From NCBI GenBank assembly GCA_021731005.1, contig JAKFYF010000081.1, positions 1 through 51,837 of the forward strand: a stretch of DNA of 51,837 nucleotides, written 5' to 3'. Below the pieces are notes generated by a model, which had not been told where the DNA came from, did no database searches, and was given only the letters and a program-made list of their open reading frames with translations. The stretch comes from Hyphomonadaceae bacterium. GTDB lineage: Bacteria; Pseudomonadota; Alphaproteobacteria; Caulobacterales; Aquidulcibacteraceae. The translations under genes and the position numbers were made by a program. How positions within the stretch are numbered: position 1 is the first letter of the stretch; each line of letters opens with the position of its first letter. Shown here piece after piece: positions 30,252 through 51,837 of this stretch.

Positions 30252-30260
30252 GAGGCGCGT

Positions 30261-30980: not shown

Positions 30981-30996
30981 GCGAGGGCGCCGCGCG

Positions 30997-32037: not shown

Positions 32038-32717
32038 GGACGCCGTTCACGGCGCCGGCGCAATCCTATGCCGGCGACGAGCCCGACACGCCCTATAAGC
32101 GCGCGCGCCAGGAATGGGACCGGCGCATGGGTGCGGCGGTCATTTCCGCGCGCGCTTGGCGTCTGATGGCGATGGCGGGACTTCTCCTCTCCGCAGGCCT
32201 TGCGCTCGCGCTCACGATCGTCGCGCTGCAGAGCCGAACCTTTGTGCATGTCGTCGAGGTCTCGCCCGAAGGCCAGGTGCTCAATGTACGCGCCGCGAGC
32301 GGCGAATGGCGCGCGACCGAAGCGCAGACCGCATATCATCTAGGGCGCTTCGTGCGTCTCGTGCGGGCTTTGCCAACCGATGGCGTGGTGCTGCGCGAGA
32401 ACTGGCTGGAAGCGTACAAATTCCTGACGCCGCAGGCGGCGGCGCAATTGACCGAGATCGCACGCGCGGACGATCCGTTCCTGAGCCTAGGGCGCGTCGG
32501 ACGCACCGTCCATATTCGCTCGATCATCCAGCGTTCCGATCGATCCTGGGAAGTCTCCTGGATCGAGCGCGAGACCAATGCGACCGGATCGCCCGATGGC
32601 GAGGCCTATAGTGGCGTCTTCTCCGTCACGACGCGCCGCCCACGCACCGCCGATGAGATCGCCAGTAATCCGCTCGGTCTGCTCATCTCCGATTTCAGCT
32701 GGAGCCGGGTGCGATGA
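32034..32717 (+). CDS. trbF: Conjugal transfer protein TrbF/VirB8
   Basis: TPYKRARQEWDRRMG, NW..AY.FLT, NPLGL...DFSWSR. Confidence 0.93.
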   Translation: MRTPFTAPAQSYAGDEPDTPYKRARQEWDRRMGAAVISARAWRLMAMAGLLLSAGLALALTIVALQSRTFVHVVEVSPEGQVLNVRAASGEWRATEAQTAYHLGRFVRLVRALPTDGVVLRENWLEAYKFLTPQAAAQLTEIARADDPFLSLGRVGRTVHIRSIIQRSDRSWEVSWIERETNATGSPDGEAYSGVFSVTTRRPRTADEIASNPLGLLISDFSWSRVR

Positions 32718-33598: not shown

Positions 33599-34698
33599 CC
33601 GCAACCTATGAGGCGCCAGCGCCAGAACCGGGGCCCGATCTCTCGATCCGCGCGCGTCCGCCCAGTCCGCGTCGGCTGTCGCGCAAGGTGCTGATGGCCG
33701 GCGCCATCATCGCCGCCTCCATCGTCACGCTCGCGCTCTTCATCGGTCTGAGCGAACGCCCCGAGCGCGAGGTGCGCCAGGCCGACGCGCAAGCAGCGGC
33801 GAGCGGGCCGCCGGAATCGATCCGCAACGCATCCGGTCAATATGCAGCGGGCGATCTGCCGCGCGCCGAACTTGATGCGCCGCGCGACATGCTCTGGGGC
33901 GAGAACGGTCCGCCACAAGGCGCAACGCTGGAGCCGCCCGCGGATGCGGCGTGGTCAGGTCCGCCCCGCGGCGCCGATACAAGCGCGCGTGCGGCGCCGC
34001 CAGACCCGCAGGCTCTGGCGCGAACTTCGCCAATCATCTTTGACGGACGAGATCGCGCCACGGCGTCTCTAGCCGCCGATGCAGGCGAAGCGCGTCTCGA
34101 TGCGCGCCTGATGCCGCCGCGCTCCCGCTATGAGCTGATGGCGGGCGCGGTGGTGCCGGCCGCGCTCATCACCGAACTCAATTCCGAACAGCCGGGCCGC
34201 GCTATCGCGCAGGTGACGGCCAACGTCTATGACAGCGTCTCCGGCGCGCATCTGCTGATCCCGCAGGGAGCGCGGCTCATCGGGACATATGACGCGGACA
34301 CATCCTACGGCGAACGCCGGCTCGTGCTCATCTGGAACCGGCTTATCTTTCCCAATGGCTGGAGCATTTCCTTGCGCGGCATGGAGGGGAGCGATCCGAC
34401 CGGCGCTGCGGGCCTGCGCGACCGCCTCGATAATCATCTGGGCCGTCTCGCCGGCGCCATCGGGCTTTCCGCCATCGTCAGCGTGATCGCCGACAATGCG
34501 GAAGACGATGATGAAAACTCGTTTGCCCAGAGTGTTGGCGATGCGGCGGCGTCGGAGGCCGCGCGCACCGGCGGTCGCATCGTCGATCGCGAACTCGGCG
34601 TGAGACCCACCATCCGCGTCCGCGCCGGTGGCTCCGTGCGCTTGTTGGTGTCGCGCGACATTCAGTTGCGGCCTTACCGGGAAGACCGGAGACGATGA
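33595..34698 (+). CDS. trbI: Conjugal transfer protein TrbI/VirB10
   Basis: AGAVVPAALIT.LNS..PG...AQV..NVYDS, LLIPQGARLIG, WNRLIFPNG, G.AGL.D..DNH. Confidence 0.93.
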   Translation: MTATYEAPAPEPGPDLSIRARPPSPRRLSRKVLMAGAIIAASIVTLALFIGLSERPEREVRQADAQAAASGPPESIRNASGQYAAGDLPRAELDAPRDMLWGENGPPQGATLEPPADAAWSGPPRGADTSARAAPPDPQALARTSPIIFDGRDRATASLAADAGEARLDARLMPPRSRYELMAGAVVPAALITELNSEQPGRAIAQVTANVYDSVSGAHLLIPQGARLIGTYDADTSYGERRLVLIWNRLIFPNGWSISLRGMEGSDPTGAAGLRDRLDNHLGRLAGAIGLSAIVSVIADNAEDDDENSFAQSVGDAAASEAARTGGRIVDRELGVRPTIRVRAGGSVRLLVSRDIQLRPYREDRRR

Positions 34699-35075: not shown

Positions 35076-36116
35076 TTAGCTCCAAACGCGGACCGCCTTA
35101 GGTGTTAATGTCACGCGGTCCTTGGGCGAGAGTTTGCCAGCCTCAGCGTGGTCGACCCGAACCTCCAGAGCTTCGCCGCTATCGAGGACGCAGTCGAGAC
35201 GCGCATCCGGCCCGGCGAGGAGAACGTTGCGCACTCGGGCAGCCAGCCCCGCACCTTCACCGCTTGCGACGCTAAAGCCATCAGGCCGAAGGTGTGCGAC
35301 CGCCGCGCCATTTCCCTCGGGCCGAGCGCCGACAATCGGCACGCCCGCCCCGGCGATGATGGCTATTCCGCCTTCGACCGTGCACGGCAATTGGACGCTG
35401 TCGCCAAGAAAATCGAACACAAAGGCGCTCGCCGGCTCGTGATAGAGTTCTTCCGGCGTGCCCACCTGTTCGAGCGCACCGTCTTTGAGCAGGGCGACGC
35501 GATCGGCAAGTTCGAGCGCTTCTTCCTGATCGTGCGTAACGAAGATGGTGGTGAGGCCGGTACGTTCGTGAAGGTCGCGCAGCCAACGGCGCAGTTCGCG
35601 TCGGACCTTGGCGTCCAACGCGCCGAAGGGCTCGTCGAGCAAAAGAATCTTCGGTTCAATGGCGAGCGCGCGCGCCAAGGCGACGCGCTGTCGCTGGCCG
35701 CCGGACAATTGGCTGGGATAGCGCCCGCCCAGGCCTTCGAGTTGCACGAGCGCGAGCAACTCCTCGACCTTCGCCTTGATCGCCGCTTCCGAGGCGCGGA
35801 CAGCGCGTGGCTTTGACCGCATGCCGAACGCAATGTTCTGAGCCGCGCTCATATGGCGGAACAGCGCGTAGTGCTGGAAGACAAAGCCGATGCCGCGCTC
35901 TCTTACAGGCTTTGCGAGCAGATTCTCATCGCGAAACCGCACCGAGCCTTGGTCCGCCGTTTCAAGCCCGGCGATCACACGCAGCAGCGTGGTCTTGCCA
36001 GAGCCGGACGGGCCCAAGAGCGCGAGGAACTCGCCATCCTCGGCGAACAATGAAACGTCCTGCAAGGCCGGGAAGCGGCCGAACGATTTGGCGATGTTGG
36101 AAATATCGAGCGACAT
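35076..36116 (-). CDS. cysA: Sulfate ABC transporter ATP-binding protein
   Basis: [42 protein letters not shown]. Confidence 0.95.
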
Positions 36117-36125
36117 GAGAATCCT

Positions 36126-36983
36126 TCAGCGCGTGCGCTGGGCGGCGAGTTCGTCCGCAAACTGCGCTTCGAGAAATGTCTTCACCGCGAGCGTGATGAG
36201 CGCGAACAGGGCAAGCAGTGAGGCGATCGCAAATGCGGCGACAAAGTTGTACTCGTTGTAAAGAATTTCGACGTGGAGCGGCATGGTGGCTGTCTTGCCG
36301 CGAATGTGGCCTGACACGACCGCTACGGCGCCGAATTCGCCCATGGCCCGCGCCGTGCACAATAGGACGCCATACATGAGCGCCCACTTTATGTTGGGCA
36401 GCGTCACGAAGAAGAAAGTGCGCCAGGCGCCGGCGCCCAAGGTGGCTGCTGCTGCTTCCTCATCGCTGCCTTGTTCCTGCATGAGCGGAATGAGCTCGCG
36501 GGCGACAAAGGGCAGAGTGACAAGGATTGTCGCCAGAACGATGCCGGTCACGGTGAAGATGACTTTGATCCCGAGCGCATCTAGGGTCGGACCGAACCAG
36601 CCATGGGCGCCATAGAGCAGGACATAGACGAGCCCCGAAATCACCGGCGAGATCGAGAAGGGCAAATCGATCAGCGTGACGAGCGCGCTCTTGCCCCAGA
36701 ACTCAAATTTGGTCACCGCCCACGCGGCGGCGATGCCGAAGATGGCGTTGAGCGGTACGGCGATCGCCGCGACCAACAGGGTGAGCCGGATGGCGGCGAG
36801 TGAGTCGGCATGTGTGACGCCTTCCACAAAGGGCTCAAGGCCGCGCCGCAATGCCTCAGCGAACACCGTCGCTAAAGGCAGGACGAGAACGAGCGCCAGA
36901 TAGGCGATGGCGATACCGATCAGGGCTGCGACGAGCACAGGCGGATCGCGGCGCGCTGGCGAGGTGGTGCGGGCTTGGCTCAT
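36126..36983 (-). CDS. cysW: Sulfate ABC transporter permease
   Basis: DLPFSISPVISG, PFVARELIPLMQEQG, ARAMGEFGAV, MPLHVEILYNEY. Confidence 0.95.
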   Translation of the reverse strand: MSQARTTSPARRDPPVLVAALIGIAIAYLALVLVLPLATVFAEALRRGLEPFVEGVTHADSLAAIRLTLLVAAIAVPLNAIFGIAAAWAVTKFEFWGKSALVTLIDLPFSISPVISGLVYVLLYGAHGWFGPTLDALGIKVIFTVTGIVLATILVTLPFVARELIPLMQEQGSDEEAAAATLGAGAWRTFFFVTLPNIKWALMYGVLLCTARAMGEFGAVAVVSGHIRGKTATMPLHVEILYNEYNFVAAFAIASLLALFALITLAVKTFLEAQFADELAAQRTR

Positions 36984-37846
36984 GCGCGCCCTCGCCGGCC
37001 TATCTGAGTCTGGAGAATATTGAGAACAAGCAGCAAGACGAGGGAGATCGTCAGCATGATGAGGCCCACGGCTGCGGCGCCGGCATAGTCAAACTCCTCC
37101 AGGCGAATGACGATAAGGAGCGGCGCGATTTCGGAGACATTGGGCAAATTGCCGGCAATGAAGATGACCGAGCCGTATTCGCCAACCGCTCGCGCGAACG
37201 CGAGCGAAAACCCAGCCAAAAGCGCGGGCAGAATAGCTGGCGCGATCACCGTCAGGATTGTTCGCAATCGGGTGGCGCCCAGAGTCGCCGCCGCTTCCTC
37301 GACTTCGACTTGGATGTCTTCAAGAACGGGCTGGATCGATCTGACGATGAAGGGGAAGCCCACGAAGACGAGCGCGACCATGACGCCGAGCGGCGTGTAG
37401 GCGATGCTGATGTCGAGCGGTGCAAACAATGCGCCGATGGCGCCGTTCGGCGCATAGATCGCGGCAAGTGATATGCCGGCCACCGCGGTTGGCAGCGCAA
37501 ACGGGAAATCGACAAAGGCGTCAAGCAGTCGCCGCCCCGGAAAATCGTAACGCACCAGAACCCAAGCGACGATGGTTCCGAAGACGGCGTTGATGCAGGC
37601 GGCGGCGAATGCTGCGCCGAAACTCAACTTCAACGCCGCTATGGTGCGGGGATGGGAGATGACGCCCCAAACATGATCAAGTCCCGCTTCCCAAGGGCGC
37701 AGCGCCAGCGCCGCGAGCGGCAGCAGGACGAAGAAGGAGAGATAGACGAGGGTGAAGCCGAGCGCTGGCCAGAACCCTGGCAAAGCGCTCGGCTCCACGA
37801 AGCGCCAAGCCCGGCGCCGCCGGAGACGAGGGAGGACGGCGGTCAC
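36980..37846 (-). CDS. cysT: Sulfate ABC transporter permease
   Basis: [41 protein letters not shown]. Confidence 0.95.
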
Positions 37847-38904
37847 TGTCGCTGAGCGCCTGCTGTGATCTGGTCGAACACCGCACCGTCGGCGAAATGC
37901 GCGGCGTGGATATCCGACCAGGTTCCGAACACATCACCGGCGGTGAACAATTCCAGGGCCGGGAATTGATCGGCGTGCCGCGCGAGCACTTCCGGGTCGG
38001 AAGGCCGGAAGAAGCGGCGCGCCGCGATTGCCTGCGCCTCGGGTGTATAAAGGAAGCGCAGATAGGCTTCGGCTACCTCTCGCGTGCCGTGCCGTTCGAC
38101 ATTGCGATCGACCCAAGCGACGGAGGGCTCGGCGAGAATACTAGTTGATGGCGTGACAATCTCGAACCGGCCTTCGCCGAACTCGTTCAGCGCCAGATGC
38201 GCTTCGTTCTCCCAGGTGATGAGCACGTCGCCGATATTGCGCTGAACGAAGGTCGTGGTCGAACCGCGCGCGCCAGTATCGAGCACGGGCACATTGGCGT
38301 AGAGGCGGCGAACAAAGTCGCGTGCGGCTGCCTCGCTGCCGCCCGGCTGACGAAGCGCATAGCCCCAGGCCGCCAGATAGTTCCAGCGCGCGCCTCCCGA
38401 TGTCTTGGGGTTCGGCGTAATGACGTCGACGCCGTCGCGGACGAGATCATCCCAGTCGCGAATGTTCTCAGGATTGCCGGCGCGGACCAGGAACACCATC
38501 GTCGAGGTATAGGGCGCGCTGTTGCGCGGCAGACGCGTCTGCCAGTCGGTTGCGATCAATCCCGTCGAAGCGATCTGATCGATGTCGTAGGGCACAGCGA
38601 GCGTCACAACATCAGCTTCGAGGCCATCGATGACCGCGCGCGCTTGCCTGCCTGAGCCGCCGTGCGACATCTCGATGGTCACGCCGGCTTCGCCGGGATG
38701 TTCGCTCGCCCATTGCGCTGCAAAGACCGAATTGACCTCATCATAGAGTTCACGCGTGGGGTCATAAGAGACGTTGAGCAATTGCGTGTCTGCCGCTGGC
38801 GGCCCGTCGCTTGGCGCGCCGCAAGCACTCACCGCAAGCAGGGCGCCCCCGAGCAGCGGGAACAACATCCGCCGCCGCAGACCTGATGTATTTGGCAGGT
38901 TCAT
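37843..38904 (-). CDS. sbp: Sulfate ABC transporter substrate-binding protein
   Basis: [46 protein letters not shown]. Confidence 0.95.
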
Positions 38905-38915
38905 GTCGATCTCCC

Positions 38916-40304
38916 TCAGAATGTCCAGGTGATGTCGGCGTAGCCATAAAGGGTGTCGCCCTCGCCGGTGGCGTTCGGGGCCTGCTCAAGAAAATCGCCT
39001 TGCAGCAGGGCAGCGGCGCCAACGTCGAGACGCAGGGCGCGCGGCACAATCCAGTAGCGCGCCCGCGCTTCGATCTGGTGGCCGGCGAAATCGCCCGATG
39101 CGCCGCTGGCGTCGCGTATGCCGGTATTGGCGACGCTGTCGCGCGCTTCATCGAGATAGAGCGCGCGATAGAAGATGAAGCCGTCCCAGCGGTCGTCGGG
39201 ACGCACTTCGAGACGCAGGCCTGGCGATGAGATGTTTGAACGTCCAAGCGGCCCGTAAATGCCCGTCGGGCCGAAATCCGGACGCCGTGGGCCATAAAGG
39301 CTGTCAAAGCGGCCGTACTCAGCGTCCGCCGAAGATGCGTCGCCGCTGGCGTAATCGTATTCGAAGGCCAATCGCGGCGCCCAAGGCGCATCCCAGCGAA
39401 AGCCGAATTCAAGGTGCGCGTAGGAGGCCTCGACATCGAGGTCGGTCACATCGGCGGGGCTGGAGGAGCCGCGCGTTTCGCCGCTTTGCACGCCGCCTTC
39501 GATCTCGAAATCCCAGTGGCCTGCTGCCGGGTCGCGATAGAAGCGAAAGCCTGGCGTGATCAGGTGGCGGTTGCGCGTGGGTCGGTCGGCCGAATCTTCT
39601 TCATCGAGCCCAAAGACGAACGCTTCGCCGCGCGCGCCGAACGGCAGATTCCGCGCCGCCAAAAAGACGCCCCAGAATGTCAGATCGTCCGTTTCGTCGT
39701 CCCACGCGATGTCGTTGTCGAGAATGGAGGCCTTGTCCGAAGGCAGGCGCGTATGCGGCAGGGTGTAGAATAGCGTGAGCTGCGTTTGGTCAGCGCTGGT
39801 CCAATCGAAACGTGCGCCGGTGAACGCATTCGTGGTGTTGCGGAAGTTGTTGCGGCCGACGAGACGGCGCGAGCCCAGATCGATGGTGAAGCGTCCAAGC
39901 TGCAAGTCAGCGCTTGCGCCGTCTGCAAACGCGTCATTGAAGCGGTAGCCGACATACGCTTGCGACAGTTCGAGAGCGTTAACTTCGCCCGTCCCCGCCG
40001 CGCCGCCGGCATCGCCTCCATAGGCGCGCGAGTCGAAGATTTCCCCGCCGATCCGGAAATCATCGAGACGCGCCTCGGCGAACAGCGTGGTCCTCAGGCT
40101 GACAAGCTGATCGCTTCCTGCGAGGCCCGGCCGAAACTGACCGTCGAGGCTTTCATAGCGCGTGCGGAAACTGCCGCTGAGCGTGAGCCAGTCTGGTGCG
40201 CCGGCGGCGTTTTCGAGCGTCCACGGCGCCCCTTCCTGCGCGGCGGCGGGCGCGGTGAGGGCCAACGCGGCGGCGCTCGCTGCCAACACAACACGAACTC
40301 TCAT
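38916..40304 (-). CDS. Alginate export (AlgE-like) family outer-membrane beta-barrel
   Basis: Signal peptide, [33 protein letters not shown]-terminal Phe. Confidence 0.85.
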
Positions 40305-40421
40305 CGCGATCCCCTCGCGTCTGCGGCGGCTCACCGCCCGGTCCGCCAGAGCTAAGTTCGTTTACTACACCGAGTCAATCGACAATAAACTATAGAGGAG
40401 GTTTAGCGGAGCTGAAGGGGG

Positions 40422-40895
40422 CTATTCAGCGCTCGCCGCTTTTTGATCGGCTTCGTGTGCGCTCAGGCTTGTCGGGAGCCCAGCGGCCTCGGAGAGCGTC
40501 ATGCCCTCCAAGATGACAGCGGAGGCGTCTCGAACCTTCAGCATCGTCTTGCGGATGGCGCAGATGGCTTCATCGCGGCAGTCTTCGCAGCGCTGATAGG
40601 CGGTGCGGCTGGTGCAGGGCGTCAGGGCGACGGGACCGTCTACTGCCCTGATAACATCAGCAAAAGTAATGAGATCAGGCGCTTTTGCGAGGGCATAGCC
40701 GCCCGCCTTGCCGCGGTGGCTGACCACCAGCCCGTGCTTGCGAAGCTCAAGCAGAATGTTCTCCAGGAACCGGCGCGGGATGTCCTGTCGTTCAGCAATA
40801 TCGCCGATGAAAAAGGGCCGCCGAGGACCTGCGCCCGTTTGCGCGGCCAGATCAATCATGGCCCGAAGGGCGTACTTTGCTTTACTCGTGAGCAT
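40422..40895 (-). CDS. Rrf2 family transcriptional regulator
   Basis: KAKYALRAMIDLA, IPRRFLENILLELR, RGKAGGY; Cys cluster C..RCEDC....C. Confidence 0.95.
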   Translation of the reverse strand: MLTSKAKYALRAMIDLAAQTGAGPRRPFFIGDIAERQDIPRRFLENILLELRKHGLVVSHRGKAGGYALAKAPDLITFADVIRAVDGPVALTPCTSRTAYQRCEDCRDEAICAIRKTMLKVRDASAVILEGMTLSEAAGLPTSLSAHEADQKAASAE

Positions 40896-41003
40896 GGGGA
40901 AACCAGAGCCATAGAATACTGACGCCGTCCATATATAACACGATAAAGTCGGGTGGGTAACTGAGGCGGACAAACCAATTCGGAGGTCTGCTTATGCTCC
41001 CAT

Positions 41004-41362: not shown

Positions 41363-41815
41363 GTGAAAGCCGCCCCGACCCTGGCCCGCCGTCGGCTCGA
41401 TGAGCGCCTCAAAGCCTTTGCCGGCCTTGGGGCCGCGCCCCCTATGGGCTGGGTCCGCGCCCTTCGCGACGCCCTGGGCCTTACCGGCGCTCAATTGGCG
41501 CGCCGCCTGGGCATCCGCCCGGCGAGCCTTTCCGAGCTTGAGAAGAACGAAGCGAAAGGCGCCATCACGCTCGCCACCTTGAGGCGCGCCGCTGAAGCGC
41601 TCGATTGCACGCTGGTCTATGCGCTGGTCCCCAATCAGAGCCTCGATGCGATGGTGAAAGAGGCTGCGACCGCTGCGGCGCAACGCGAACTCGCCGCCTC
41701 GTTTCACACCATGGCGCTGGAAGGCCAGGACCTTCGCGCCGCCGACAAGCGCGAGATGGTGGAAGAGCTTGCAGCCGACATTGCCAGGGCGGGCGGCAAG
41801 CGCCTTTGGGGCTGA
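41363..41815 (+). CDS. Mobile mystery protein A (XRE-type HTH)
   Basis: PPMGWVRALRDALGLT..QLARRLG, E..GAITL.TLRRAAEALDC.LVYALVP, TMALEGQ, LW C-terminus. Confidence 0.9.
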   Translation: MKAAPTLARRRLDERLKAFAGLGAAPPMGWVRALRDALGLTGAQLARRLGIRPASLSELEKNEAKGAITLATLRRAAEALDCTLVYALVPNQSLDAMVKEAATAAAQRELAASFHTMALEGQDLRAADKREMVEELAADIARAGGKRLWG

Positions 41816-42799: not shown

Positions 42800-43234
42800 A
42801 TGTTGCGGGGGCTACGCCACCATAGAACTGGGTTCGCCCAGGCGCTTGCAGCGTTCGCGCTGCTGGCGATGGTTGTGCGTGCGCTCGTTCCGGCCGGCTA
42901 CATGTTCACGCCGAGCCAGGATCAACGCTTCATCACGGTGACCTTGTGCTCCGGTCATGGACCCGCCGAACTCGTCATGGACCTGACGACAGGCGTCGTC
43001 GTTGATCCGGGTTCAACGAACCAGAACGACGCGCCTTCCAAGAGCGCGCCTGGCGCCGATGCGCCCTGCGTCTTTGCTGTTGCGGCGGCGCTCTCTGCGC
43101 CAGAGCAACCGGCGTCCTTGCCTTTTGTCTTCCGTCTCGCGTCCGCCGCCCTCCCGCGCGCGATCGCGGTTGCGCCCGGCCGCGGCCTTGCCGCACCGCC
43201 GCCCTGGTCCACCGGACCTCCGCTCACAGTCTGA
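42800..43234 (+). CDS. DUF2946-like protein (candidate copper-responsive leader)
   Basis: TM ending RALVPAGYM, LCSGHG, PCVFA, C-terminal APPPWSTGPP. Confidence 0.8.
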   Translation: MLRGLRHHRTGFAQALAAFALLAMVVRALVPAGYMFTPSQDQRFITVTLCSGHGPAELVMDLTTGVVVDPGSTNQNDAPSKSAPGADAPCVFAVAAALSAPEQPASLPFVFRLASAALPRAIAVAPGRGLAAPPPWSTGPPLTV

Positions 43235-43315: not shown

Positions 43316-43630
43316 ATGACAGGACAAACCAGCGCGCAAGCGCGTGCACATCATGCGCCGATATCGAATGGCGCCGACTTATTCTGGCGGATTGCCAATC
43401 CGATCATGGCCGGCGCTATTGGATTTCACCTCGCCGACATCACGGGTGCGGTGGTCGGCGCCGGTCTGGCCATCGCGCTGCCATTTCTCCCGGCAGCGCT
43501 GAAGCGGCTCTCGCCCTTGCTGCGCAACGCCGCACGATGGATTGCGCCGCATCTGAAAACCGCTTGGGGCCGCTTGCTGGCCTATCTGCCGCTCAGTCTC
43601 GTGCGCGTGATTGAACGGAGGCGGTCATGA
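43316..43630 (+). CDS. Hypothetical small membrane protein
   Basis: 104-aa ORF with hydrophobic core; ATGA overlap with the next gene. Confidence 0.55.
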   Translation: MTGQTSAQARAHHAPISNGADLFWRIANPIMAGAIGFHLADITGAVVGAGLAIALPFLPAALKRLSPLLRNAARWIAPHLKTAWGRLLAYLPLSLVRVIERRRS

Positions 43631-44130
43631 GCATGGCCGATCCCGATCGCGTCTGGTTCGATGCGCGCATCGCGCCAAACCAGGCCATCAGCCGGCGCGG
43701 GCTTGCGCTGATTGGTGCGGGCCTGCTGGCGCCGGCCGTCCTCTTCAGCGGTTTCATGATCTTCATGGAGGCATGGCCCGCCTCGATCTTTCTCGGCGGC
43801 GAAGCGCTGCTCGCGGTCGCAGCGCTCTATTGGTGCGCCAAGCGTCTCTCCGAGCAATCCGAGCGCGTCCAGCTCACCGACAATGCACTCATCGTCGAGA
43901 ACTGGGATCGGGGCAGGGTCGTCGCCAGCGAGCGCATCGACCCGACCTGGGCGCATGTCGAGCGGCGCATCGACCGCGACTTCGGCTGCCAGGCCGTCTT
44001 CGTCCGCGTGCGCCGCCGCTACGTGCGTCTCGCCACAGCACTCAGTCCGCCCGAGCGTGCAGCCTTCGCCCAAGCCCTCGAGAACGCCCTCGATCAACGC
44101 AAAACCGGCTTCGCCAGAAGCGCGGCCTGA
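43627..44130 (+). CDS. DUF2244 family membrane protein
   Basis: FDARI.PN.AISRRG, GAWP-like EAWP, W..VE, LSPPER..FA.AL..AL. Confidence 0.8.
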   Translation: MSMADPDRVWFDARIAPNQAISRRGLALIGAGLLAPAVLFSGFMIFMEAWPASIFLGGEALLAVAALYWCAKRLSEQSERVQLTDNALIVENWDRGRVVASERIDPTWAHVERRIDRDFGCQAVFVRVRRRYVRLATALSPPERAAFAQALENALDQRKTGFARSAA

Positions 44131-44153: not shown

Positions 44154-46331
44154 ATGAAGCACTCTCTCTTTCTCTCGGTTGCGGCCCTATGCTTCACGCC
44201 ATCTCTTGCCATGGCTCAGGAAGTGGATCGAGTCGGCGTCGACACAATTGTCGTGATTGGCCAACGCACAGGGCCAGATTATCAAGCGAGCAATGCCAGC
44301 GCCGCTACGCGCACGCCGACCCCGCTCATGGAAACGCCCACGGCCGTGCAAGTGGTTCCACGCGCTGTCCTTGATGATCAAGGCGCGGTGCGCGTTGATC
44401 GAGCGCTTGAGAATGTGTCAGGGGTTTCGCTCGTTGACGGCCAAGGCGTCGAGAACTTTTTCCAGATTCGCGGATTTCAAACCGGCGATCTCTACCGCGA
44501 CGGCGTGCGTGCGCGCGCTGGCCGACTTCTTATGGGGCCGCGCGAAACCGCGAATGTCGAACGCATTGAGGTCGTCAAAGGGCCGGCGGCGGTGCTCTAT
44601 GGGCGCCTGGAGCCGGGAGGGCTCATCAACATCGTGCCCGAGCGGCCGCTTGGCGAAGCCTATGCGTCCGCGGAATTGCAGGTGGGTTCTGAGGAGTTCT
44701 CTCGCGGCACTCTGGATTTGTCCGGACCTCTGGGCGAGGGGGGCGCGCTGTTTTACCGGCTGAACGGCGCCTACGAACAGGCGGGCTCGTTCCGTGAGTT
44801 CCGCGAGAACGAGCGCACGTTCCTCGCACCCGTTTTGCAGTGGAACATCGGCCCCCAAACGCGCGCGCTGTTGGAGATTGAGTACCTCGATAGCCGCGAT
44901 CCGTTGGACTACCTCAACCCGGTGATCGGCGATGGCCCGATAGACTTGCCTCGAGCGCGCAATTTAGGCGAGGCGGGCTCGTTCATGGACACGACCGACA
45001 CGCGCACGACCTTCTCGCTTGCGCACGCCTTCTCCGATGCCTGGCGCATCACATTCAAGTACGACCATGACGATCTAAGCTTCGACATCCCGACACAAGC
45101 ATCGATCGGAGGACTCGTGGATCCGCTTGCATGTTCGCTTGCAAGCTGTGAAGTCTATCGCTTCCTAGTCGGCACGGACGGCGACGGTTCAAGCGACTAT
45201 GCCTCGCTCGAACTTGTGGGGGAGTTCGAGACTGGCGCGTTGTCGCACACATTACTAGTCGGCGCGGATTATCTTCGCGATCGCAATGACAACGTTTTCC
45301 AATTCAATTTCTTTTTCGATCCGATCGACATGTTCAATCCGGTGCATACGCCGGTCGACCCAAACGCGCTCAGTGCGCCGGATTATCGTTCGGACCAAAG
45401 CATTCGAGATACGTGGCGCGGATATTACATCCAGGATCAGATCGAGCTTCCGGGAAATGTCTTCCTGCTTGCTGGGGTTCGTTTCGACGACACGGAGTCG
45501 CGCAGTTCGCTGAGTGAGAGCCTGTTCGGCGACCCACCCACGCTGACAGCTAATTCCGCGGACGAAGACGCTACAACGCCAAGGTTTGGCGTGCTCTGGC
45601 GCCCGCGTCCGGAATTCAGTCTTTACGCGAATTATGTCGAGAACTTCGGCCGCTCCAACGGACGCAATGCCGATGGTGCGCTGCTGCCCGCGCAGACCGC
45701 TGAGCAGTGGGAAATCGGCGCCAAGACTGAATTTTCCGGCGGCCGCATTGTCGCCTCGGCGGCCCTATTCGACATTGCCAAGCAAAATCTCGCCGTCGCC
45801 GACCCTGATCCGGTTCAAGCCGCTGCCGGTTTCCAGGTCGCGGTCGGTGAAGTGCGGCACCGTGGGCTTGAGCTCGATGTGGCGGGTGAGTTGGCGCCCG
45901 GTTGGCGGCTTATCGCCAACTACGCCTACATCGACTCAGAGATCACCCGAGACGCGGTGGCGTCGGGCGGCGTCATTCTGCCAGGCAACACAGGTAATCG
46001 CTTGTTCGGCGTCCCCGAACACAGCGGCGCGATTTGGACGACCTATGAGTTCCAAGACGGTGCGCTGCAAGGATGGGATGTCGGCGCGGGCGTTGTGGCG
46101 CGAAGCGAGCGTGAGGGCGATAACGCCAATACGTTCACGCTGCCGGGCTACGCCACGGTGAACCTCATGGGACGATACAATTTCGATATTGGTGGACGCG
46201 ACGCCTCGTTCCAGCTCAATCTCGATAACGTCTTCGACGAAACCTACCACACGACAGCGGGCTCTCGTGACAGCGGCGTGGGCTTTGGCGCGCCGCGCTC
46301 GCTCCTTGCGTCCCTGCGTGTTGAATATTGA
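44154..46331 (+). CDS. TonB-dependent receptor (siderophore-receptor class)
   Basis: Signal peptide, TonB box DTIVVIG, ETP.AVQVV, IRGF, ERIEVVKGPAAVLYG..EPGG.IN, NLDNVFDETY, terminal aromatic residue. Confidence 0.95.
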   Translation: MKHSLFLSVAALCFTPSLAMAQEVDRVGVDTIVVIGQRTGPDYQASNASAATRTPTPLMETPTAVQVVPRAVLDDQGAVRVDRALENVSGVSLVDGQGVENFFQIRGFQTGDLYRDGVRARAGRLLMGPRETANVERIEVVKGPAAVLYGRLEPGGLINIVPERPLGEAYASAELQVGSEEFSRGTLDLSGPLGEGGALFYRLNGAYEQAGSFREFRENERTFLAPVLQWNIGPQTRALLEIEYLDSRDPLDYLNPVIGDGPIDLPRARNLGEAGSFMDTTDTRTTFSLAHAFSDAWRITFKYDHDDLSFDIPTQASIGGLVDPLACSLASCEVYRFLVGTDGDGSSDYASLELVGEFETGALSHTLLVGADYLRDRNDNVFQFNFFFDPIDMFNPVHTPVDPNALSAPDYRSDQSIRDTWRGYYIQDQIELPGNVFLLAGVRFDDTESRSSLSESLFGDPPTLTANSADEDATTPRFGVLWRPRPEFSLYANYVENFGRSNGRNADGALLPAQTAEQWEIGAKTEFSGGRIVASAALFDIAKQNLAVADPDPVQAAAGFQVAVGEVRHRGLELDVAGELAPGWRLIANYAYIDSEITRDAVASGGVILPGNTGNRLFGVPEHSGAIWTTYEFQDGALQGWDVGAGVVARSEREGDNANTFTLPGYATVNLMGRYNFDIGGRDASFQLNLDNVFDETYHTTAGSRDSGVGFGAPRSLLASLRVEY

Positions 46332-46342
46332 GGAGATTGGAG

Positions 46343-47479
46343 ATGAGGATGCTTAGGTTTGTGCACGCAATTGCGCTGGCCCTCTGCGCAATGGTGGTGG
46401 CTGCGGGTATCGGGCCTGGCGCGTTAGCGCAGCACGGCGACGGCGCAACGCCCGCGCCGCGACAGCTTGAAGTGGCGGTTCTTGTTTTTGAAGGCGTCGA
46501 GCTTCTTGATTTCGCCGGCCCCGGGGAGACCTTCGCGGTCGCGATGGACGCCAACGGCCACAGCCGCTTCAACGTTCACACAATTGGCCTGAGCCGCAGG
46601 CCCATCGTCAGCCAGGGTTTCGTGACCATTACGCCAGAGCGAACAATTCGCACTTGGCGGCGTCCAGACATCATAGTTGTTCCAGGCGGCGATCCAACGC
46701 CAATCTTCGAGAGCCCAACGGCGTTGGCCTGGCTGCGTGACGCCCACGCGCAGGGCGCGCTCATTCTCTCTGTTTGTAACGGCGCCACGGTGCTGGCGCG
46801 CGCGGGCTTGATGGACCGGCGTGAGGTTACAACCCACCACGGCGCCGTCGATCTCCTAAGATGGATGTCGCCGACGACGGTGGTGCACAATGATCGTCGC
46901 ATCGTCGATAGCGGCGATATCGTTACGAGCGGAGGAATCTCGGCGGGCATAGACGGGGCGCTTTACATGGTGGCGCGCCTCACCGACATCGATACCGCGC
47001 GCCGGGCGGCCATTCATATGGAGTACGATCAGTGGCGCGCTCTGGAGCCCGAAGTCCTACGGCTTCAGGCTTCCAGCGATGCGGTGAAGAGCGTGCCGGG
47101 CTATGTCTATCGCGATCCGCGCGACTGGGCGGTCTATCGCCTGTTCAACACCATCATGGACCGCGGTGTTCCGGCGGCGATGGCGGACTATCCCGCCATG
47201 TTCGCAAGCGCCGCGGGCCACGATCGCGAGATGATTGCAGAGCCGGGGATGATCGAAACCGCGCAATGGCTGCTTGAGAATGGCAGCGATCCCAATGTCA
47301 GCGCGCGCATCCTGGAATTCGTGGTGGCCGCTTATCCGGGCTCGGCCTCGGGATGGGAAAACCTTGCGCGCGCGCAAGCGCGCGCCGGCCGCGCGGAGGC
47401 CGCTCACGAAAGCTACAACGCTTGTCTCCGGATTGAGCCAAACAACCGTCGCTGCCGGGCAGGCGCGCGAGCCGCATGA
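46343..47479 (+). CDS. Exported DJ-1/PfpI family protein with C-terminal TPR-like helices
   Basis: Sec signal (..GALA/QHG), LLDFAGP, VPGG, SVCNGA, TSGGISAGID; WENLARAQ..G....A..SY..CLRIEPNN. Confidence 0.85.
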   Translation: MRMLRFVHAIALALCAMVVAAGIGPGALAQHGDGATPAPRQLEVAVLVFEGVELLDFAGPGETFAVAMDANGHSRFNVHTIGLSRRPIVSQGFVTITPERTIRTWRRPDIIVVPGGDPTPIFESPTALAWLRDAHAQGALILSVCNGATVLARAGLMDRREVTTHHGAVDLLRWMSPTTVVHNDRRIVDSGDIVTSGGISAGIDGALYMVARLTDIDTARRAAIHMEYDQWRALEPEVLRLQASSDAVKSVPGYVYRDPRDWAVYRLFNTIMDRGVPAAMADYPAMFASAAGHDREMIAEPGMIETAQWLLENGSDPNVSARILEFVVAAYPGSASGWENLARAQARAGRAEAAHESYNACLRIEPNNRRCRAGARAA

Positions 47480-47519
47480 GATCAACCAAGAAAACGCAAG
47501 CCACACGCAAGGAACTCAC

Positions 47520-47609
47520 ATGAAATATCTTCTGCTCTCCAGCGCCGCGGCGCTTTGCATCGCCCCCAGTTTGGCCTTTGCTCAAGAAGCAGGCGGCCCT
47601 GCGCACTGA
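47520..47609 (+). pseudogene. Signal-peptide-only remnant resembling the TonB receptor N-terminus
   Basis: AAGGA RBS plus MKYLLLSSAAALCIAPSLAFAQEAGGPAH* versus MKHSLFLSVAALCFTPSLAMAQEV of the receptor at 44154. Confidence 0.65.
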
Positions 47610-47626
47610 ATTTTGAGGAGAAGACG

Positions 47627-48466
47627 ATGACCAATCTTGATCGCCGCGCTGCGCTGATCGCAGCCATGCTGGCGCCGCTTGCGGCGTCGGCGTGCTCGCG
47701 CGGGCAAACGCAAACCTCCTCCGGCGTTGGCGAAACGCCGGAAGGGCCGGTCGTCCACGACATGAGTGACATGCCGGCGTCCTGGACCCAGGATAACCAG
47801 ATCGCCATGCTCTGTTATCCGCGCATGACGATCCTCGACCTGATCGGGCCGCAATACATGTTCTCGTCGCTGATGGGCGCCAAGGTCCATCTGGTGGCGA
47901 AGACGCGCGATCCGATCACGAGCGATACCGGCGTCACCATGGTGCCGACCGCAACATTCGAGGAAGTACCGCGCGACCTCACCGTTCTCTTCGCGCCGGG
48001 CGGCACGGATGGCACGCTGGCCGCCATGCGAGACGATGAGACGCGCAATTGGATGGCTGATCGTGGATCGCGCGCTCGATACGTCACTTCAGTATGCACG
48101 GGCTCGCTCATACTTGGCGCCGCCAGCTTGTTGCGCGGGTACAACGCGACATGCCATTGGGGCGGGCTCTCAGCCTTGAGCGAGTTCGGCGCCACGCCTG
48201 TCGACGCGCGCATTGTCAAAGACCGCAATCGCATCACTGGAGCGGGTGTTACCGCGGGCCTCGACTTTGGCCTGCAGATGCTGGCTGAGATGCGTGACCG
48301 CACCTATGCGGAAGGCGTGCAGCTCATGTGCGAATACGATCCGCACCCGCCGTTCAACGCGGGCTCCATTCACACAGCGCCCATCCACGTTCGGGCGATG
48401 ATCCAGGCCATGGTGGCGCCATTTCCAGGCCAGGTGCGCGACGTTGCGCGCGAAATTGCGACATAA
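47627..48466 (+). CDS. DJ-1/PfpI family protein, isonitrile hydratase-like, with Tat-lipoprotein signal
   Basis: DRRAALI..LAASAC signal; LDLIGP, RARYVTSVCTGSL.LGAA.LL, AT.HW, GVTAGLDF, EY.P.PPFNAGS..TAP. Confidence 0.85.
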   Translation: MTNLDRRAALIAAMLAPLAASACSRGQTQTSSGVGETPEGPVVHDMSDMPASWTQDNQIAMLCYPRMTILDLIGPQYMFSSLMGAKVHLVAKTRDPITSDTGVTMVPTATFEEVPRDLTVLFAPGGTDGTLAAMRDDETRNWMADRGSRARYVTSVCTGSLILGAASLLRGYNATCHWGGLSALSEFGATPVDARIVKDRNRITGAGVTAGLDFGLQMLAEMRDRTYAEGVQLMCEYDPHPPFNAGSIHTAPIHVRAMIQAMVAPFPGQVRDVAREIAT

Positions 48467-48475
48467 GAGGACACC

Positions 48476-49360
48476 ATGAAACTCAGATTGATCACAATGC
48501 TCGCCGCGATGTTGGCCGTCACGGCATGCGCGAGCACGCCGCCGTCAAGCGAGGGCCACCGGGATGTCACGATCCGGTTCGATGCCCGCGCCGGAGACAG
48601 CGCTATTCGCTGCGGGCAAGCGTTGACCGGGATCGGCGCATCGGGGGCGTCCGTCGCGTTGCAGGACTTCCGCGTTTATGTGTCGAACGTCCGCCTGATC
48701 TCTCGCGCCGGCGCCGAGACGCCGCTGCAACTGACGCCGGACGGCGCCTTCCAGAGCGATCGCGTCGCGCTGCTCGACTTCGAGAACGCGAGCGGCAATT
48801 GCAATGGCAACGTGCAGACGCACACGTCAGTGCAGGGTCGCGCGCCCGCCGGCGATTATGTCGGGCTCGCTTTCGATCTCGGCGTGCCGGTCGACCTCAA
48901 CCACCAGGACCCGACCATCGCGCCGGCGCCGCTCAACTTCTCGGCGCTGACCTGGCCCTGGCGCTATGGCTACAAGTTCACAACGATCGATCTTGAGACG
49001 GGTCGCGCGCCAGGCGCCGCACAGATGGGTCACGGGGCCAGCGGTTTCTCCATCCATCTCGGCAGCGTCGATTGTGGCGAGGGATCGCCCCGCACGCCGC
49101 CGGAGACGCCGTGCGCCTCTCCCAATCGGCCGAGCTATCGTCTCGACGCGTTTGACGCGCACACGCAGGTGGTTGTGCTCGACCTCGCGGCGCTTCTCGC
49201 CAATACGGATGTCACGATCAACCATCCCGGCAGTGCGTCCGGGTGCATGTCCACGGCCGATGATGACGATTGTGTCGCCATCATGGATCGTCTTGGGCTG
49301 AGCTTCCGTGGTCAGGCCTCGCGCGGTCAGCGCTTTGTACGAACGGCAACGGCGAACTGA
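48476..49360 (+). CDS. mbnP: MbnP family copper-binding protein (four-Cys metallo-mystery partner)
   Basis: Lipobox, QDFRVYVSNVRL, VALLDFEN..G.C, LGVP..LNH, WPW.YGYKF (WxW), HLGS..C, GCMS....DC. Confidence 0.9.
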   Translation: MKLRLITMLAAMLAVTACASTPPSSEGHRDVTIRFDARAGDSAIRCGQALTGIGASGASVALQDFRVYVSNVRLISRAGAETPLQLTPDGAFQSDRVALLDFENASGNCNGNVQTHTSVQGRAPAGDYVGLAFDLGVPVDLNHQDPTIAPAPLNFSALTWPWRYGYKFTTIDLETGRAPGAAQMGHGASGFSIHLGSVDCGEGSPRTPPETPCASPNRPSYRLDAFDAHTQVVVLDLAALLANTDVTINHPGSASGCMSTADDDDCVAIMDRLGLSFRGQASRGQRFVRTATAN

Positions 49361-49361
49361 C

Positions 49362-50537
49362 ATGCGGTGGGGCCGTGCTCTCGCAGTCTTGTTGGCGGCG
49401 TCGCTCCTGACCGGATGGGCGGCCAGCGGCGGCCTGCGCGAGCTCGGCGGCTATGTGCAAAGCCATTATGATTTCGGCCTTCCTTCGTGGACGCCGGCGC
49501 CGTTGGAGCCGGAGGGCAATCCGACGACGCCGGCGAAGGTCGAACTCGGGCGACGGCTCTTCTACGACACGCGCCTGTCACGGGATGGGACGATGTCATG
49601 CGCGAGCTGTCATCGCCAGGAGTTAGCCTTTACCGATGGACGCGCGACCTCGCCTGGCGTGACGGGGCAGCACACAGCGCGCAATTCGATGTCGCTGGCC
49701 AATGCCGGATATCAACCGGTGCTAACCTGGGCCAACCCGCTCATGCACTCGCTGGAGCAGCAAGCGCTGGTTCCATTGATTGGCCAGGAGCCGGTCGAAC
49801 TGGGGCTTGCGGGGATGGACGAAGAAGTCCGCGCACGGCTTCAGAGCGAGCGCATCTACCGGCGTCTCTTCCTTGAGGCTTTCCCCGAAGCGCGCGGCGA
49901 GATTTCGCTCGCCACCATCACGCGGGCGCTCGGCGCGTTTCAGCGCACCATCATCTCCGTAAGGTCGCCTTACGATCGCTATCGCTATGAAGGCGACGTC
50001 AACGCCGTTTCCGACGCCGTTATTCGCGGGGAGGCGCTCTTCTTCAGCGAACGCCTCGAATGCCATCATTGCCATAACGGTCTGCACTTCTCGGATACTG
50101 TCCTGCACGAGCGCAACCGGATCGGCGAACGCGCTTTTCACAATACGGGTCTCTACAACATCGATGGGCGAGGGGCTTATCCCGCCAACAATACCGGGAT
50201 TGCCGAGATCACGGGACGCCCCGAGGATATGGGCCGCTTTCGAGCGCCGAGTTTACGCAACGTGGCGGTGACTGCGCCCTATATGCATGACGGCTCGATT
50301 GCGACGCTGGACGAAGTCATCGATCATTACGCCGCCGGCGGACGTACAATCGCGAGCGGGCCAAACGCGGGCGTTGGCCGCGACAATCCGCTCAAGAGCT
50401 CGTTTCTTCCGGGCTTCGAGATGAGCGCCCAGGAACGCGCGGATCTGATCGCTTTCCTGCAATCGCTGACGGATGAACAATTCTTGCGCGATCCGCGCTA
50501 TGCCGATCCGTGGACGGAAGAGGAGAGACGGCGATGA
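49362..50537 (+). CDS. mbnH: MbnH family di-heme enzyme (bCcP/MauG superfamily)
   Basis: LGRRLFYDTRLS, CASCH and CHHCH heme motifs, FRAPSLRNVAVTAPYMHDGS; directly after mbnP. Confidence 0.92.
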   Translation: MRWGRALAVLLAASLLTGWAASGGLRELGGYVQSHYDFGLPSWTPAPLEPEGNPTTPAKVELGRRLFYDTRLSRDGTMSCASCHRQELAFTDGRATSPGVTGQHTARNSMSLANAGYQPVLTWANPLMHSLEQQALVPLIGQEPVELGLAGMDEEVRARLQSERIYRRLFLEAFPEARGEISLATITRALGAFQRTIISVRSPYDRYRYEGDVNAVSDAVIRGEALFFSERLECHHCHNGLHFSDTVLHERNRIGERAFHNTGLYNIDGRGAYPANNTGIAEITGRPEDMGRFRAPSLRNVAVTAPYMHDGSIATLDEVIDHYAAGGRTIASGPNAGVGRDNPLKSSFLPGFEMSAQERADLIAFLQSLTDEQFLRDPRYADPWTEEERRR

Positions 50538-50884
50538 AGCGTTTTCTTGGGGCCCTTCTGGCGCTGTTGATGATGACGGGGCCAGCCGCGGCGCACACGA
50601 CTCTACAAAGCACTTCGCCGGCCTCCGGCGCAGTGCTCACCCGGTCGCCGGAGCAAGTCACGATGACATTCGGCGAGCCGACGCGCCTTACGTCCGTGGC
50701 GCTTGTGACGGCAAGCAGTGAGCGGCGGCTCTCGTTCACGCCTTCGGGCAGCGCGACGACGTTTACAATTACCGCGCCCGCGCTCGTGGCGGGGCGCAAT
50801 GAACTGCGTTGGCGCGCATTGTCGCGCGATGGTCATCCAGTCGAAGGTTCGATCATACTCGTCGTCCGCCCGCCCAATCGGTGA
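50534..50884 (+). CDS. copC: Copper resistance protein CopC
   Basis: Signal peptide ending AAA/H, STSPA.GAVL, WRALS.DGH.V.G; no Met-rich loop. Confidence 0.9.
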   Translation: MKRFLGALLALLMMTGPAAAHTTLQSTSPASGAVLTRSPEQVTMTFGEPTRLTSVALVTASSERRLSFTPSGSATTFTITAPALVAGRNELRWRALSRDGHPVEGSIILVVRPPNR

Positions 50885-50887
50885 GGC

Positions 50888-51837
50888 ATGTTCGAAGCGC
50901 TTGCCGCAATCGCCAAGACATTGCTCTACGCCGCAGGTCTCAGCGGCGCCGGAATTGCGCTCGCACGCGCCAGCCTGGCTAAGGAAAGCGGATCTGAGGG
51001 AGAAGTGCTGGTGCGACAGGCTGGCCGCGCCGCTGGCGCCTTGGTTGTGGCGGCGGCTCTGGCGAGCGCCGCGATCCTTGTCATGCGGCTTGGCGGCTAT
51101 TGGGACGCGGGCACGCTTGGTGCGATCTTCCTGTCTCCAATCGGAGCGGGTTTGGCGCTGCACTGCGCAGGCGGCGTGGGGCTTATCCTAAGTTCGCGCC
51201 GCCTGCCGGCGCTAGCGTCTGCGGTGCTTGTTCTCGGCGGCTTTGCTTTGACCGGTCACGCTGCCGCGCGCGGCCCTGTGCTGGCGGTCGTGATGATGGC
51301 GCATCTTGGCGCCGCAGCTTGGTGGGTCGGAGGACTTTGGCTCCTTCTGCGCGGCAGTGGTCGCCTTCCGCTTGAACAGTTCAAGCAGCTTGTTGAACGC
51401 TTCAGCACGCTCGCGATCTGGATTGTCGCCGCGCTCTTTGCGGCGGGTGTCCTGACGGCGGCATTGCTGCTGGCGTTCAGTCCGGACCTGTCGCGGAGTT
51501 ACGACCGGGCGCTGCTCCTGAAGGCGGTCATTGCGCTAGCCGTGCTTGCGCTGGCCGTGTTCAACAAGCTCGTCTTGACGCCGCGCCTCAAACGCCCGGA
51601 CGGCGTTTCTTGGTTTCGTGGAGTTATCCGGGCAGAGTTTGTCCTGCTTTTTGGGGTGCTGGCGACGACCGCCTTCATGACAACCTACTTCTCGCCGCAC
51701 GAACCGCACGCGGCGCCTGTTGAGCGCGTGGCCGCTGAGGTCGAGGGGCTCGCCGTCATAGACCCATGGGCTTCGGTCACGCCCGGCGGCGTCTCCCAGA
51801 GCGCGGGATACTTCATCCTTCGCAATGACAGCCGCGA
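50888..51837 (+). CDS. copD: CopD family membrane protein apparently fused to a PCu(A)C copper chaperone; 3'-truncated by window edge
   Basis: ALTGHAA, AHL.AAAWWVGGL, ERFS, LLLK, FNKLVLTPRL, then in frame AVIDPWASVTPGG...AGYFILRN. Confidence 0.85.
   Translation, partial: MFEALAAIAKTLLYAAGLSGAGIALARASLAKESGSEGEVLVRQAGRAAGALVVAAALASAAILVMRLGGYWDAGTLGAIFLSPIGAGLALHCAGGVGLILSSRRLPALASAVLVLGGFALTGHAAARGPVLAVVMMAHLGAAAWWVGGLWLLLRGSGRLPLEQFKQLVERFSTLAIWIVAALFAAGVLTAALLLAFSPDLSRSYDRALLLKAVIALAVLALAVFNKLVLTPRLKRPDGVSWFRGVIRAEFVLLFGVLATTAFMTTYFSPHEPHAAPVERVAAEVEGLAVIDPWASVTPGGVSQSAGYFILRNDSR

Follow-up and report, generated by a model that had tools for sequence, protein, structure and literature searches.

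Gene content and history of the copper operon

The stretch analysed here (the window, 51,837 nucleotides) is the whole of contig C1 (JAKFYF010000081.1) of a 3.37 Mb Hyphomonadaceae genome that is 91% complete and whose closest named relatives are metagenome-assembled genomes of Hyphomonadaceae/Terricaulis. Its end carries a copper operon with a TonB receptor and two predicted exported DJ-1/PfpI proteins, one of which resembles isonitrile hydratase (ICH). Our main subject is the pairing of such an exported ICH-type enzyme with a TonB receptor in copper-uptake operons of Gram-negative bacteria, a pair that is real, conserved and apparently undescribed.

Open reading frames (ORFs) together with Pfam and TIGRFAM profile searches place all of the named copper-operon genes on the forward strand, where an initial annotation made from the sequence had put them as one operon (TonB receptor, two DJ-1/PfpI proteins, MbnP, MbnH, CopC and CopD-PCuAC). 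That annotation began the operon at 44154 and overlooked both a receptor scar and a TPR domain; the operon starts upstream of that position, with DUF2946, a small hydrophobic ORF and DUF2244 at its head. The features are as follows.

42800..43234, + strand: DUF2946 / CruR-like leader (PF11162 E 0.0017, below the cut-off, with a motif check), with a signal-like N-terminus, two Cys, a C-terminal PPPWSTGPP and no CXXC
43316..43630, + strand: small hydrophobic ORF without a family match
43627..44130, + strand: DUF2244 membrane protein (PF10003 E 1.6e-24)
44154..46331, + strand: TonB receptor A, of siderophore (FoxA/FhuA/FetA-like) type (TIGR01783 381 bits, cut-off 223.5; PDB matches)
46343..47479, + strand: DJ1A, a DJ-1/PfpI and TPR protein with a Sec signal (PF01965)
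47520..47616, + strand: scar of receptor B, a signal-peptide start joined to the final codons, about 2 kb lost
47627..48466, + strand: DJ1B, a twin-arginine, lipobox-like ICH-type enzyme with a His/Met arm (HDMSDM) (PF01965)
48476..49360, + strand: MbnP-family copper-binding protein (TIGR04052 270.7 bits, cut-off 140; WPW at 160)
49362..50537, + strand: MbnH di-heme enzyme (TIGR04039 505 bits, cut-off 362.85; CxxCH at 80 and 234)
50534..50884, + strand: CopC (PF04234 E 2.8e-19)
50888..51837 (window end), + strand: CopD-PCuAC fusion (PF05425; PCuAC part, PF04314, on contig C76)

The window end and contig C76 overlap by 126 identical bases; the CopD-PCuAC fusion finishes on C76, and the run of copper genes stops after it. 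MbnP and MbnH have the features of an MbnPH pair, a TIGR04052 protein with the WxW motif that had been reported initially, adjoining a TIGR04039 protein with two CxxCH motifs. Export signals were judged by eye and by regular expression (regex). As had been claimed, the window appears free of genes for chelator biosynthesis, two Pfam scans of its ORFs, one covering 30 and one covering 14, having turned up no such family, and the genome, at 91% completeness, gave no TauD match and no MbnB match over the cut-off (63 bits versus 325). A promoter scan returned 0 sigma-70 sites, and terminators occurred at chance level.

Five close relatives of the locus (L005, L006, L007, L009 and L010) share an order of leader region, receptor B, DJ1B, optional PepSY, PCuAC or Sco genes, MbnP, MbnH, CopC and CopD-PCuAC. 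DJ1A is absent from all five, and receptor A is about 31% identical to their receptor B. Between DJ1A and DJ1B in the window lie the first 76 and the last 18 bases of receptor B, joined, in a scar of 97 bp that matches L005 835-916 at 85% and then L005 2944-2961. A contig piece (47550-47962) of sequencing run X3 spans the junction without differing letters, which makes an assembly artefact unlikely; X3 is one of four runs that belong to one study, and the source sample is possibly among them. From the gene order of the relatives and the joined remnants it follows that the locus gained receptor A and DJ1A by insertion and lost receptor B, in either order of events. The intact receptor at 44154, initially taken for the partner of the hydratase, is therefore ruled out as the conserved partner of DJ1B, that place belonging to the deleted receptor B. 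Among 147 family genomes nothing matched receptor A at E<=1e-95, and its nearest relatives are 35-36% identical. With receptor B deleted, this genome would depend on receptor A for import; what receptor A carries is less certain, and so is the function of the inserted receptor A-DJ1A cassette as a whole.

The head of the operon is shared with other loci. The small ORF has an 81% identical counterpart in L005 and a 41% identical one in L006, a DUF2244 gene also lies upstream of the receptor in L005, L006, L007, L010, L011, L015 and L122, and the DUF2946 subtype of the window also heads orthologous loci. DUF2946 proteins are described as CruR-type leaders, which silence the receptors encoded behind them when copper is present and which stand first in operons with genes for TonB-dependent transporters, PepSY, Sco, PCuAC, CopC and MbnPH (PMC9426467). 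The local protein resembles such leaders in being the first gene of its operon and in having a signal-like start and a C-terminal Pro-rich arrest motif, its product ending LAAPPPWSTGPPLTV, with TGPP in place of RAPP. Its cysteines are two single ones; CxxC is present in 16 of 44 CruR-like matches in the loci.

The combination of two single Cys with a PPP..TGPP end, instead of CXXC/RAPP, marks an alphaproteobacterial leader subtype found at L005-L015, L048, L063, L071, L076 and window position 42800. It recurs in a second PCuAC/PepSY copper locus of the same genome, on contig C18 (L228 2139-7608), where a CXXC-less DUF2946 accompanies PCuAC, a copper-storage-like ORF, a FetA-like receptor and PepSY_TM. 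The copper-storage-like ORF, of twin-arginine translocation (Tat) type, Cys-rich and four-helix, was identified by eye and has no Pfam match at 1e-8.

A clade of predicted exported ICH-type enzymes and its receptors

The ICH motifs initially noticed in the 47627 product were confirmed, and its Tat-lipoprotein signal is supported by inspection. Alignment of DJ1B to Pseudomonas fluorescens ICH (PDB 3NON, E 5e-51) pairs D71, C157, T158, D213 and Y237 with D17, C101, T102, D157 and Y181 of ICH, and the C-terminal tail PPFNAGS is retained; in ICH, Asp17 serves as the general acid and Cys101 as the nucleophile (PMC10462001). By eye and regex the N-terminus is lipobox-like, and its twin arginines are invariant in 24 of 24 aligned members of the clade described below. 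The nearest solved structure is PDB 3EWN (E 5e-98; 61% identity in the structure comparison), a ThiJ/PfpI protein of Pseudomonas syringae whose entry title gives no function. The predicted model of DJ1B (pLDDT 88) superposes on ICH with a root-mean-square deviation of about 1.5 A and a TM score of 0.92 by target length, the His/Met arm being modelled with moderate confidence only (pLDDT 58-70). From its sequence and modelled fold, DJ1B is predicted to be a periplasmic enzyme of the isonitrile hydratase type. ICH itself is an obligate homodimer that converts R-NC to the N-formamide.

ICH-like loci were collected from GTDB genomes, plasmids and metagenomes in a sampling seeded by DJ1B, and the removal of 30 hand-listed repeat or near-repeat loci and one short row left 181 genes on the tree, from which membership of the exported clade was defined in place of signal-based classes. 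One clade with support 99 holds 107 of the 181 genes (86 in an earlier IQ-TREE run of 161 rows, again with support 99), and an RR-like signal was found by regex in 89 of these 107 versus 8 of the 74 genes outside. The active site is kept throughout the clade: Asp17 in 105 of 107 (the other 2 being gaps), Cys101, Asp157 and Tyr181 each in 107 of 107, and Thr or Ser at position 102 in 107 of 107. The clade is rare in even draws, with 3 matches in 400 Alphaproteobacteria and 14 in 300 Caulobacterales at E<=1e-62, one of the 14 being cytoplasmic.

Linkage to receptors sets the clade apart. Among rows with at least 1.5 kb upstream, a TonB receptor lies directly upstream of 48 of 86 clade genes, and within one gene of 55 of 86 versus 0 of 62 outside. 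Copper markers show the same contrast where at least 4 kb is available on both sides: 23 of 46 clade genes have one within 6.5 kb, versus 0 of 40 outside, as called with hidden Markov models (HMMs) that were trained partly on the tested loci, about 11 rows being close kin. The positives fall to 14 of 46 when the leader is left uncounted. The markers track the receptor, occurring at 22 of 32 receptor-linked and 1 of 14 unlinked loci, and Pfam searches, which covered 102 of the 190 neighbours listed, verified NosL, PCuAC, Sco, CusF-Sco, HMA, PepSY and CobW. The co-occurrence that the initial annotation had proposed to count therefore holds for receptors and copper genes and fails for MbnPH, which, called by a local HMM, is present at 5 of 46 loci and so is ruled out as an obligate partner.

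Seen from the receptor side, a tree of 78 receptors places 43 in one clade (support 99). Each of the 43 adjoins a clade enzyme: 41 lie immediately upstream of it, one is separated from it by a second DJ-1 gene and one lies downstream; these 43 were sampled through the enzyme. A search seeded with the receptor instead found receptor B in 12 of 300 Caulobacterales genomes, in 10 of them beside the enzyme. The receptor-B/enzyme pairing recurs over many families. L111 carries two receptor-enzyme cassettes in tandem, and all 3 of 3 Methylocystis/Methylosinus plasmid loci have a divergent kinase-regulator pair, receptor and enzyme. Receptor A falls into a group (support 99) with 8 further receptors, whose loci contain a clade enzyme as well. 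OprC-type receptors for free copper have conserved Cys, Met and His metal-binding residues. Neither receptor group here has an invariant position occupied by Cys, Met or His, the receptors do not show the OprC-type features, and TIGR01778 is not among the 25 of 27 matches listed.

A cluster in Caulobacter crescentus may offer a tractable counterpart. It comprises CC1775 (DUF2946), CC1776 (GntR), sodA, CC1778 (receptor) and CC1780 (ThiJ/PfpI), is down two- to four-fold in a zur mutant, has no Zur box and is listed separately from known Fur genes (PMC4176598, Table 1 for the genes). L072 has the gene order of CC1775-1780 with receptor B and a clade enzyme (GntR and superoxide dismutase by eye), and on gene order alone the C. 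crescentus cluster would be orthologous to the cassette. Zinc uptake was rejected as the role of the cluster, which falls rather than rises in the zur mutant; CobW-type neighbours at L015, L064 and L110 leave a small doubt about that rejection. Fe/Mn superoxide dismutase genes occur inside receptor operons at L072, L078 and L211 (Pfam-confirmed for L078), possibly as copper-sparing replacement enzymes.

Linkage to receptors is nevertheless incomplete, 31 of 86 clade members having none, and a different role suggests itself for the enzyme: isonitriles may act as antibiotics that starve cells of copper or enter via copper receptors, and expression of a periplasmic ICH alongside copper uptake may serve to break these antibiotics down. 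ICH counts as a defence enzyme in the accessible literature (PMC10792529, PMC10462001), one ICH-like type stands beside aac(3)-II on plasmids, and the genome studied here has a cytoplasmic ICH-like gene of its own on contig C38. Such a defence would leave the tight pairing with one receptor clade, the tandem repeats of L111 and the layout with a two-component pair unexplained, and we consider it improbable.

Two further observations concern the enzyme genes themselves. On plasmids, at L060 5842-6669 and L061 7842-8564, an ICH-like gene with twin arginines immediately precedes aac(3)-II, and EF-hand and heavy-metal-sensor genes stand close by; by score, 13 of 17 plasmid matches are of this weaker type, 2 of which were inspected. 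Frameshifted copies of the exported enzyme occur at L010 (near 8000-8135) and L151 (3770-4523), for which sequencing error and decay are both possible.

DJ1A is distantly ICH-like only. The initial annotation was right about its Asp/Cys pair and Sec signal, Asp56 and Cys145 corresponding to ICH Asp17 and Cys101 and being invariant in 26 of 26 sequences. The likeness does not extend to Thr102, which we take to be a functional position of the ICH active site and which is Asn146 in DJ1A, nor to the C-terminal tail, which is absent: the alignment to ICH stops at EYD, and a helical TPR region follows. DJ1A is 29% identical to DJ1B, and its top structural match is still ICH. It was also considered as an enzyme of the SfaF type, SfaF presumably being the name of the ICH gene of the SF2768 producer; this was rejected after inspection of five plasmid matches (of 33 records), which include two from Streptomyces: all five are short DJ-1 genes, and neither an isonitrile cluster nor copper genes could be seen around them. 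Among the 120 listed relatives of DJ1A, 20 are fused to PF19335 (9), PF04945 (10) or PF13473 (1), presumably heavy-metal-binding (HMBD), YHS and cupredoxin domains, with a Cys-rich motif visible. Secreted DJ1A-type domains joined to Cys-rich metal-binding, YHS, cupredoxin or dioxygenase-like domains (P0146, P0150, P0163, P0164, P0193, P0218, P0227 and P0229) form an uncharacterised family with a copper hint of its own.

The proposed ligand and the fate of its copper

The gene content, active-site conservation, fold, signal-bearing clade and linkage to receptors and copper genes are established directly. A siderophore-type receptor, an adjacent signal-bearing enzyme with an intact site and a set of copper chaperones are most simply read as import of a copper-isonitrile complex followed by hydration in the periplasm. 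We hypothesize, by analogy, that the cassette pirates isonitrile chalkophores as a copper counterpart of PfeA/PfeE enterobactin theft, a reading we hold tentatively and place just short of an even call. The leader would allow read-through under copper scarcity, as CruR does, and the receptor would import the intact copper chelate, a step suggested by the lack of any invariant Cys, Met or His in either receptor group. The exported enzyme would then turn the isonitrile groups by hydration into formamides, to which copper does not bind; hydration by ICH has been postulated as the release step (PMC13674278). More speculatively, the His/Met arm may capture the freed Cu(I). By the established functions of their families, MbnP/MbnH, CopC/CopD and PCuAC (elsewhere Sco, NosL and CusF) would pass the copper to respiratory oxidases.

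A search for isonitrile synthase (PF05141) in 24 selected genomes, of which 22 have the exported enzyme and 2 were chosen for receptor B (G673 having both, apart), found none, and the same search passed the cut-off in 4 of 331 other genomes. The features of piracy on a foreign metallophore that can be read from the genes, namely a receptor-enzyme pair and the absence of PF05141, TauD and MbnB, are present; the ligand and its destruction are predicted.

Several points weigh against this reading, beginning with the fact that both the ligand and the enzyme activity are predictions. No receptor or ICH lies within about 10 kb of 4 Gram-negative isonitrile-synthase loci, so the producer loci provide no direct tie of the receptor to an isonitrile. 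Receptor A's best plasmid matches include cyanobacterial receptors annotated for ferrichrome or siderophores, the local leader is without the CXXC needed by CruR, and the Gly150-Gly151-Ile152 loop of ICH is Ala-Gly-Val in DJ1B (Ala at 150 in 63 of 107 clade members), at a site where G150T lowers the kcat of ICH by about 80% (PMC10462001). The contrast between exported and cytoplasmic genes is of a single evolutionary origin, and within-clade tests on independent pairs, with only 6 and 3 pairs, gave a median p of 0.5 and have no power; to these are added the clade members that stand without a receptor, the 10 of 32 receptor-linked loci without a copper marker, and the kinship and training overlap in the marker counts. 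Receptor B also occurs without its enzyme: in G696 it lies in a DUF2946-MbnPH-CopCD-PCuAC operon that has none, and in G673 it is flanked by PCuAC and a superoxide dismutase-like gene, the enzyme lying at another place in the genome. Five plasmid matches to receptor B were found, and of the 3 inspected one has the enzyme and two (L215 and L216) have DUF2946 upstream and an alpha/beta-hydrolase downstream, in one copy with a signal-like start. Where an alpha/beta-hydrolase or no enzyme stands beside receptor B, the ligand need not be an isonitrile. Behind its receptor B-hydrolase pair, L216 also has PepSY and a receptor that resembles CrtA (E 9e-81 to 9RVQ).

These last loci bear on an alternative that we consider unlikely, though a serious possibility, in which the receptor imports a copper chelate other than an isonitrile and the DJ-1 protein either cleaves that chelate by hydrolysis or, by means of its Cys and His/Met arm, serves in the periplasm as a copper-binding or thiol protein. 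Human DJ-1 itself binds copper. An exported-looking serine hydrolase occupies the same slot beside receptor B, a strict HDM/HEM motif (a pattern picked after viewing the data) is present in 28 of the 55 enzymes linked to a receptor and in 1 of the 31 without such linkage, the metal-binding fusions of the DJ1A relatives point the same way, and CrtA imports low-affinity copper chelates (PMC12914433). Against it, every ICH-specific position and the PPFNAG tail are kept, beyond what a chaperone needs, the arm is modelled at no more than the moderate confidence given above, and chaperones are already present as MbnP, CopC and PCuAC.

The mobile setting of the operon invites another explanation. Genes for conjugation (VirD4/TraG, TrbE, TrbL, VirB8, CagX and TrbI) lie at window positions 23743-34698, and together with the patchy spread of the cassette, found above 85% identity in 3 of 36 genus genomes, they suggest mobile cargo; an integrative element may carry the sulfate-ABC and copper operons that lie downstream of them. 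On this view the receptor, and receptor A in particular, might import an iron siderophore or methanobactin, with the DJ-1 genes as passengers in a mobile metal island. The receptors match siderophore subfamilies, MbnPH is present, and receptor A has plasmid relatives in cyanobacteria and methanotrophs, its best matches including the cyanobacterial receptors of ferrichrome or siderophore annotation; two of the relatives are followed by PepSY and one stands behind a pair of extracytoplasmic function (ECF) sigma factor and FecR. The siderophore-receptor matches, however, share only 31-37% identity, a search upstream gave no close Fur- or Zur-like box (at least 5 mismatches), the C. crescentus cluster is not Zur-repressed and is separate from known Fur genes in the accessible text (PMC4176598), and the receptor-B/enzyme pairing recurs across families as described above. 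We regard import of iron siderophores or methanobactin as very unlikely.

L011 has, behind its copy, a coupling-protein ORF similar to that among the conjugation genes of the window. In the window, a 577-aa Pol-beta nucleotidyltransferase of conflict systems (PF20697) and a 729-aa ORF without a Pfam match at 1e-8 lie side by side (21479-23212 and 18656-20845) and possibly form a defence locus. Mobile mystery protein A (TIGR02612) is encoded at 41363-41815, its partner B not being seen among the ORFs listed, and a sulfate ABC operon with an alginate-export-type porin and an Rrf2 regulator occupies 35076-40973.

Relation to known systems and wider significance

Piracy of isonitrile chalkophores would combine elements known from several systems. 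PfeRS-PfeA-PfeE of Pseudomonas aeruginosa (PMC8001512) likewise sets a TonB receptor beside a periplasmic enzyme that destroys a foreign chelator, and its two-component genes recall the divergent pair of the methanotroph loci; there the metal is iron and the enzyme an esterase, whereas here the context is copper and the enzyme a DJ-1 cysteine enzyme with a predicted ligand. The active-site residues and fold are those of ICH/InhA (PDB 3NON), SfaF of the SF2768 producer and fungal XanA, and copper release by hydration has been postulated (PMC13674278; XanA PMC5974471), these enzymes being cytoplasmic or in producer clusters, unlike the present signal-bearing, receptor-linked clade in genomes without a detected PF05141 synthase. 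Chalkophore piracy via a TonB receptor is established for foreign methanobactin with MbnT2 of Methylosinus trichosporium OB3b, for which a ligand-destroying enzyme is not described in the accessible text (PMC9601215). The cruR-crtA-crpH (Bordetella), cruR-oprC, pcuABCDE and TccA operons share the DUF2946 leader, TonB receptor, PepSY, PCuAC, Sco, CopC and MbnPH (PMC9426467, PMC12914433, PMC12617631); CrtA itself (9RVQ) is distant, matching receptor B at E 1.6e-22 and receptor A not at all at 1e-20, versus the far closer neighbour receptor of L216, and CruR differs from the window leader in its CXXC.

DJ-1/PfpI terms are absent from the main text and text supplements of the CruR and CrtA papers (PMC9426467, PMC12914433). 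More broadly, the receptor-ICH pair is not described in the accessible literature on ICH, chalkophores, isonitrile-copper uptake, DUF2946 and Caulobacter, which leaves most subscription papers uncovered and an earlier mention possible. The initial claim that such piracy was undescribed thus appears to stand for the pair of receptor and exported ICH, and not for its ingredients: foreign methanobactin is already taken up by MbnT2, and ICH-driven copper release from diisonitriles has been postulated or reported in producers (PMC13674278, PMC9601215).

Only a small number of TonB receptors are known to import copper, and even CrtA has no known natural ligand (PMC12914433); how diisonitriles are taken up and how copper is released from them has been called largely unknown (PMC13674278). 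The cassette supplies candidates for a receptor family and for a release enzyme, the latter with a relative of solved structure (3EWN), and C. crescentus would serve as a tractable model. In its broadest form, which we think somewhat doubtful and yet worth serious consideration, our hypothesis is that many Gram-negative families run dedicated piracy, in which a new TonB receptor family imports fungal and actinomycete copper-isonitriles and a Tat-exported ICH with a His/Met arm disarms the antibiotic and passes its copper to periplasmic chaperones; C. crescentus CC1775-CC1780 would carry this system. If true, isonitrile antibiotics would double as a public copper source, ICH would gain a nutritional role and methanotrophs would gain a second route to foreign copper. 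Even with a different ligand, the pair would give an orphan DJ-1 clade a function in metal uptake.

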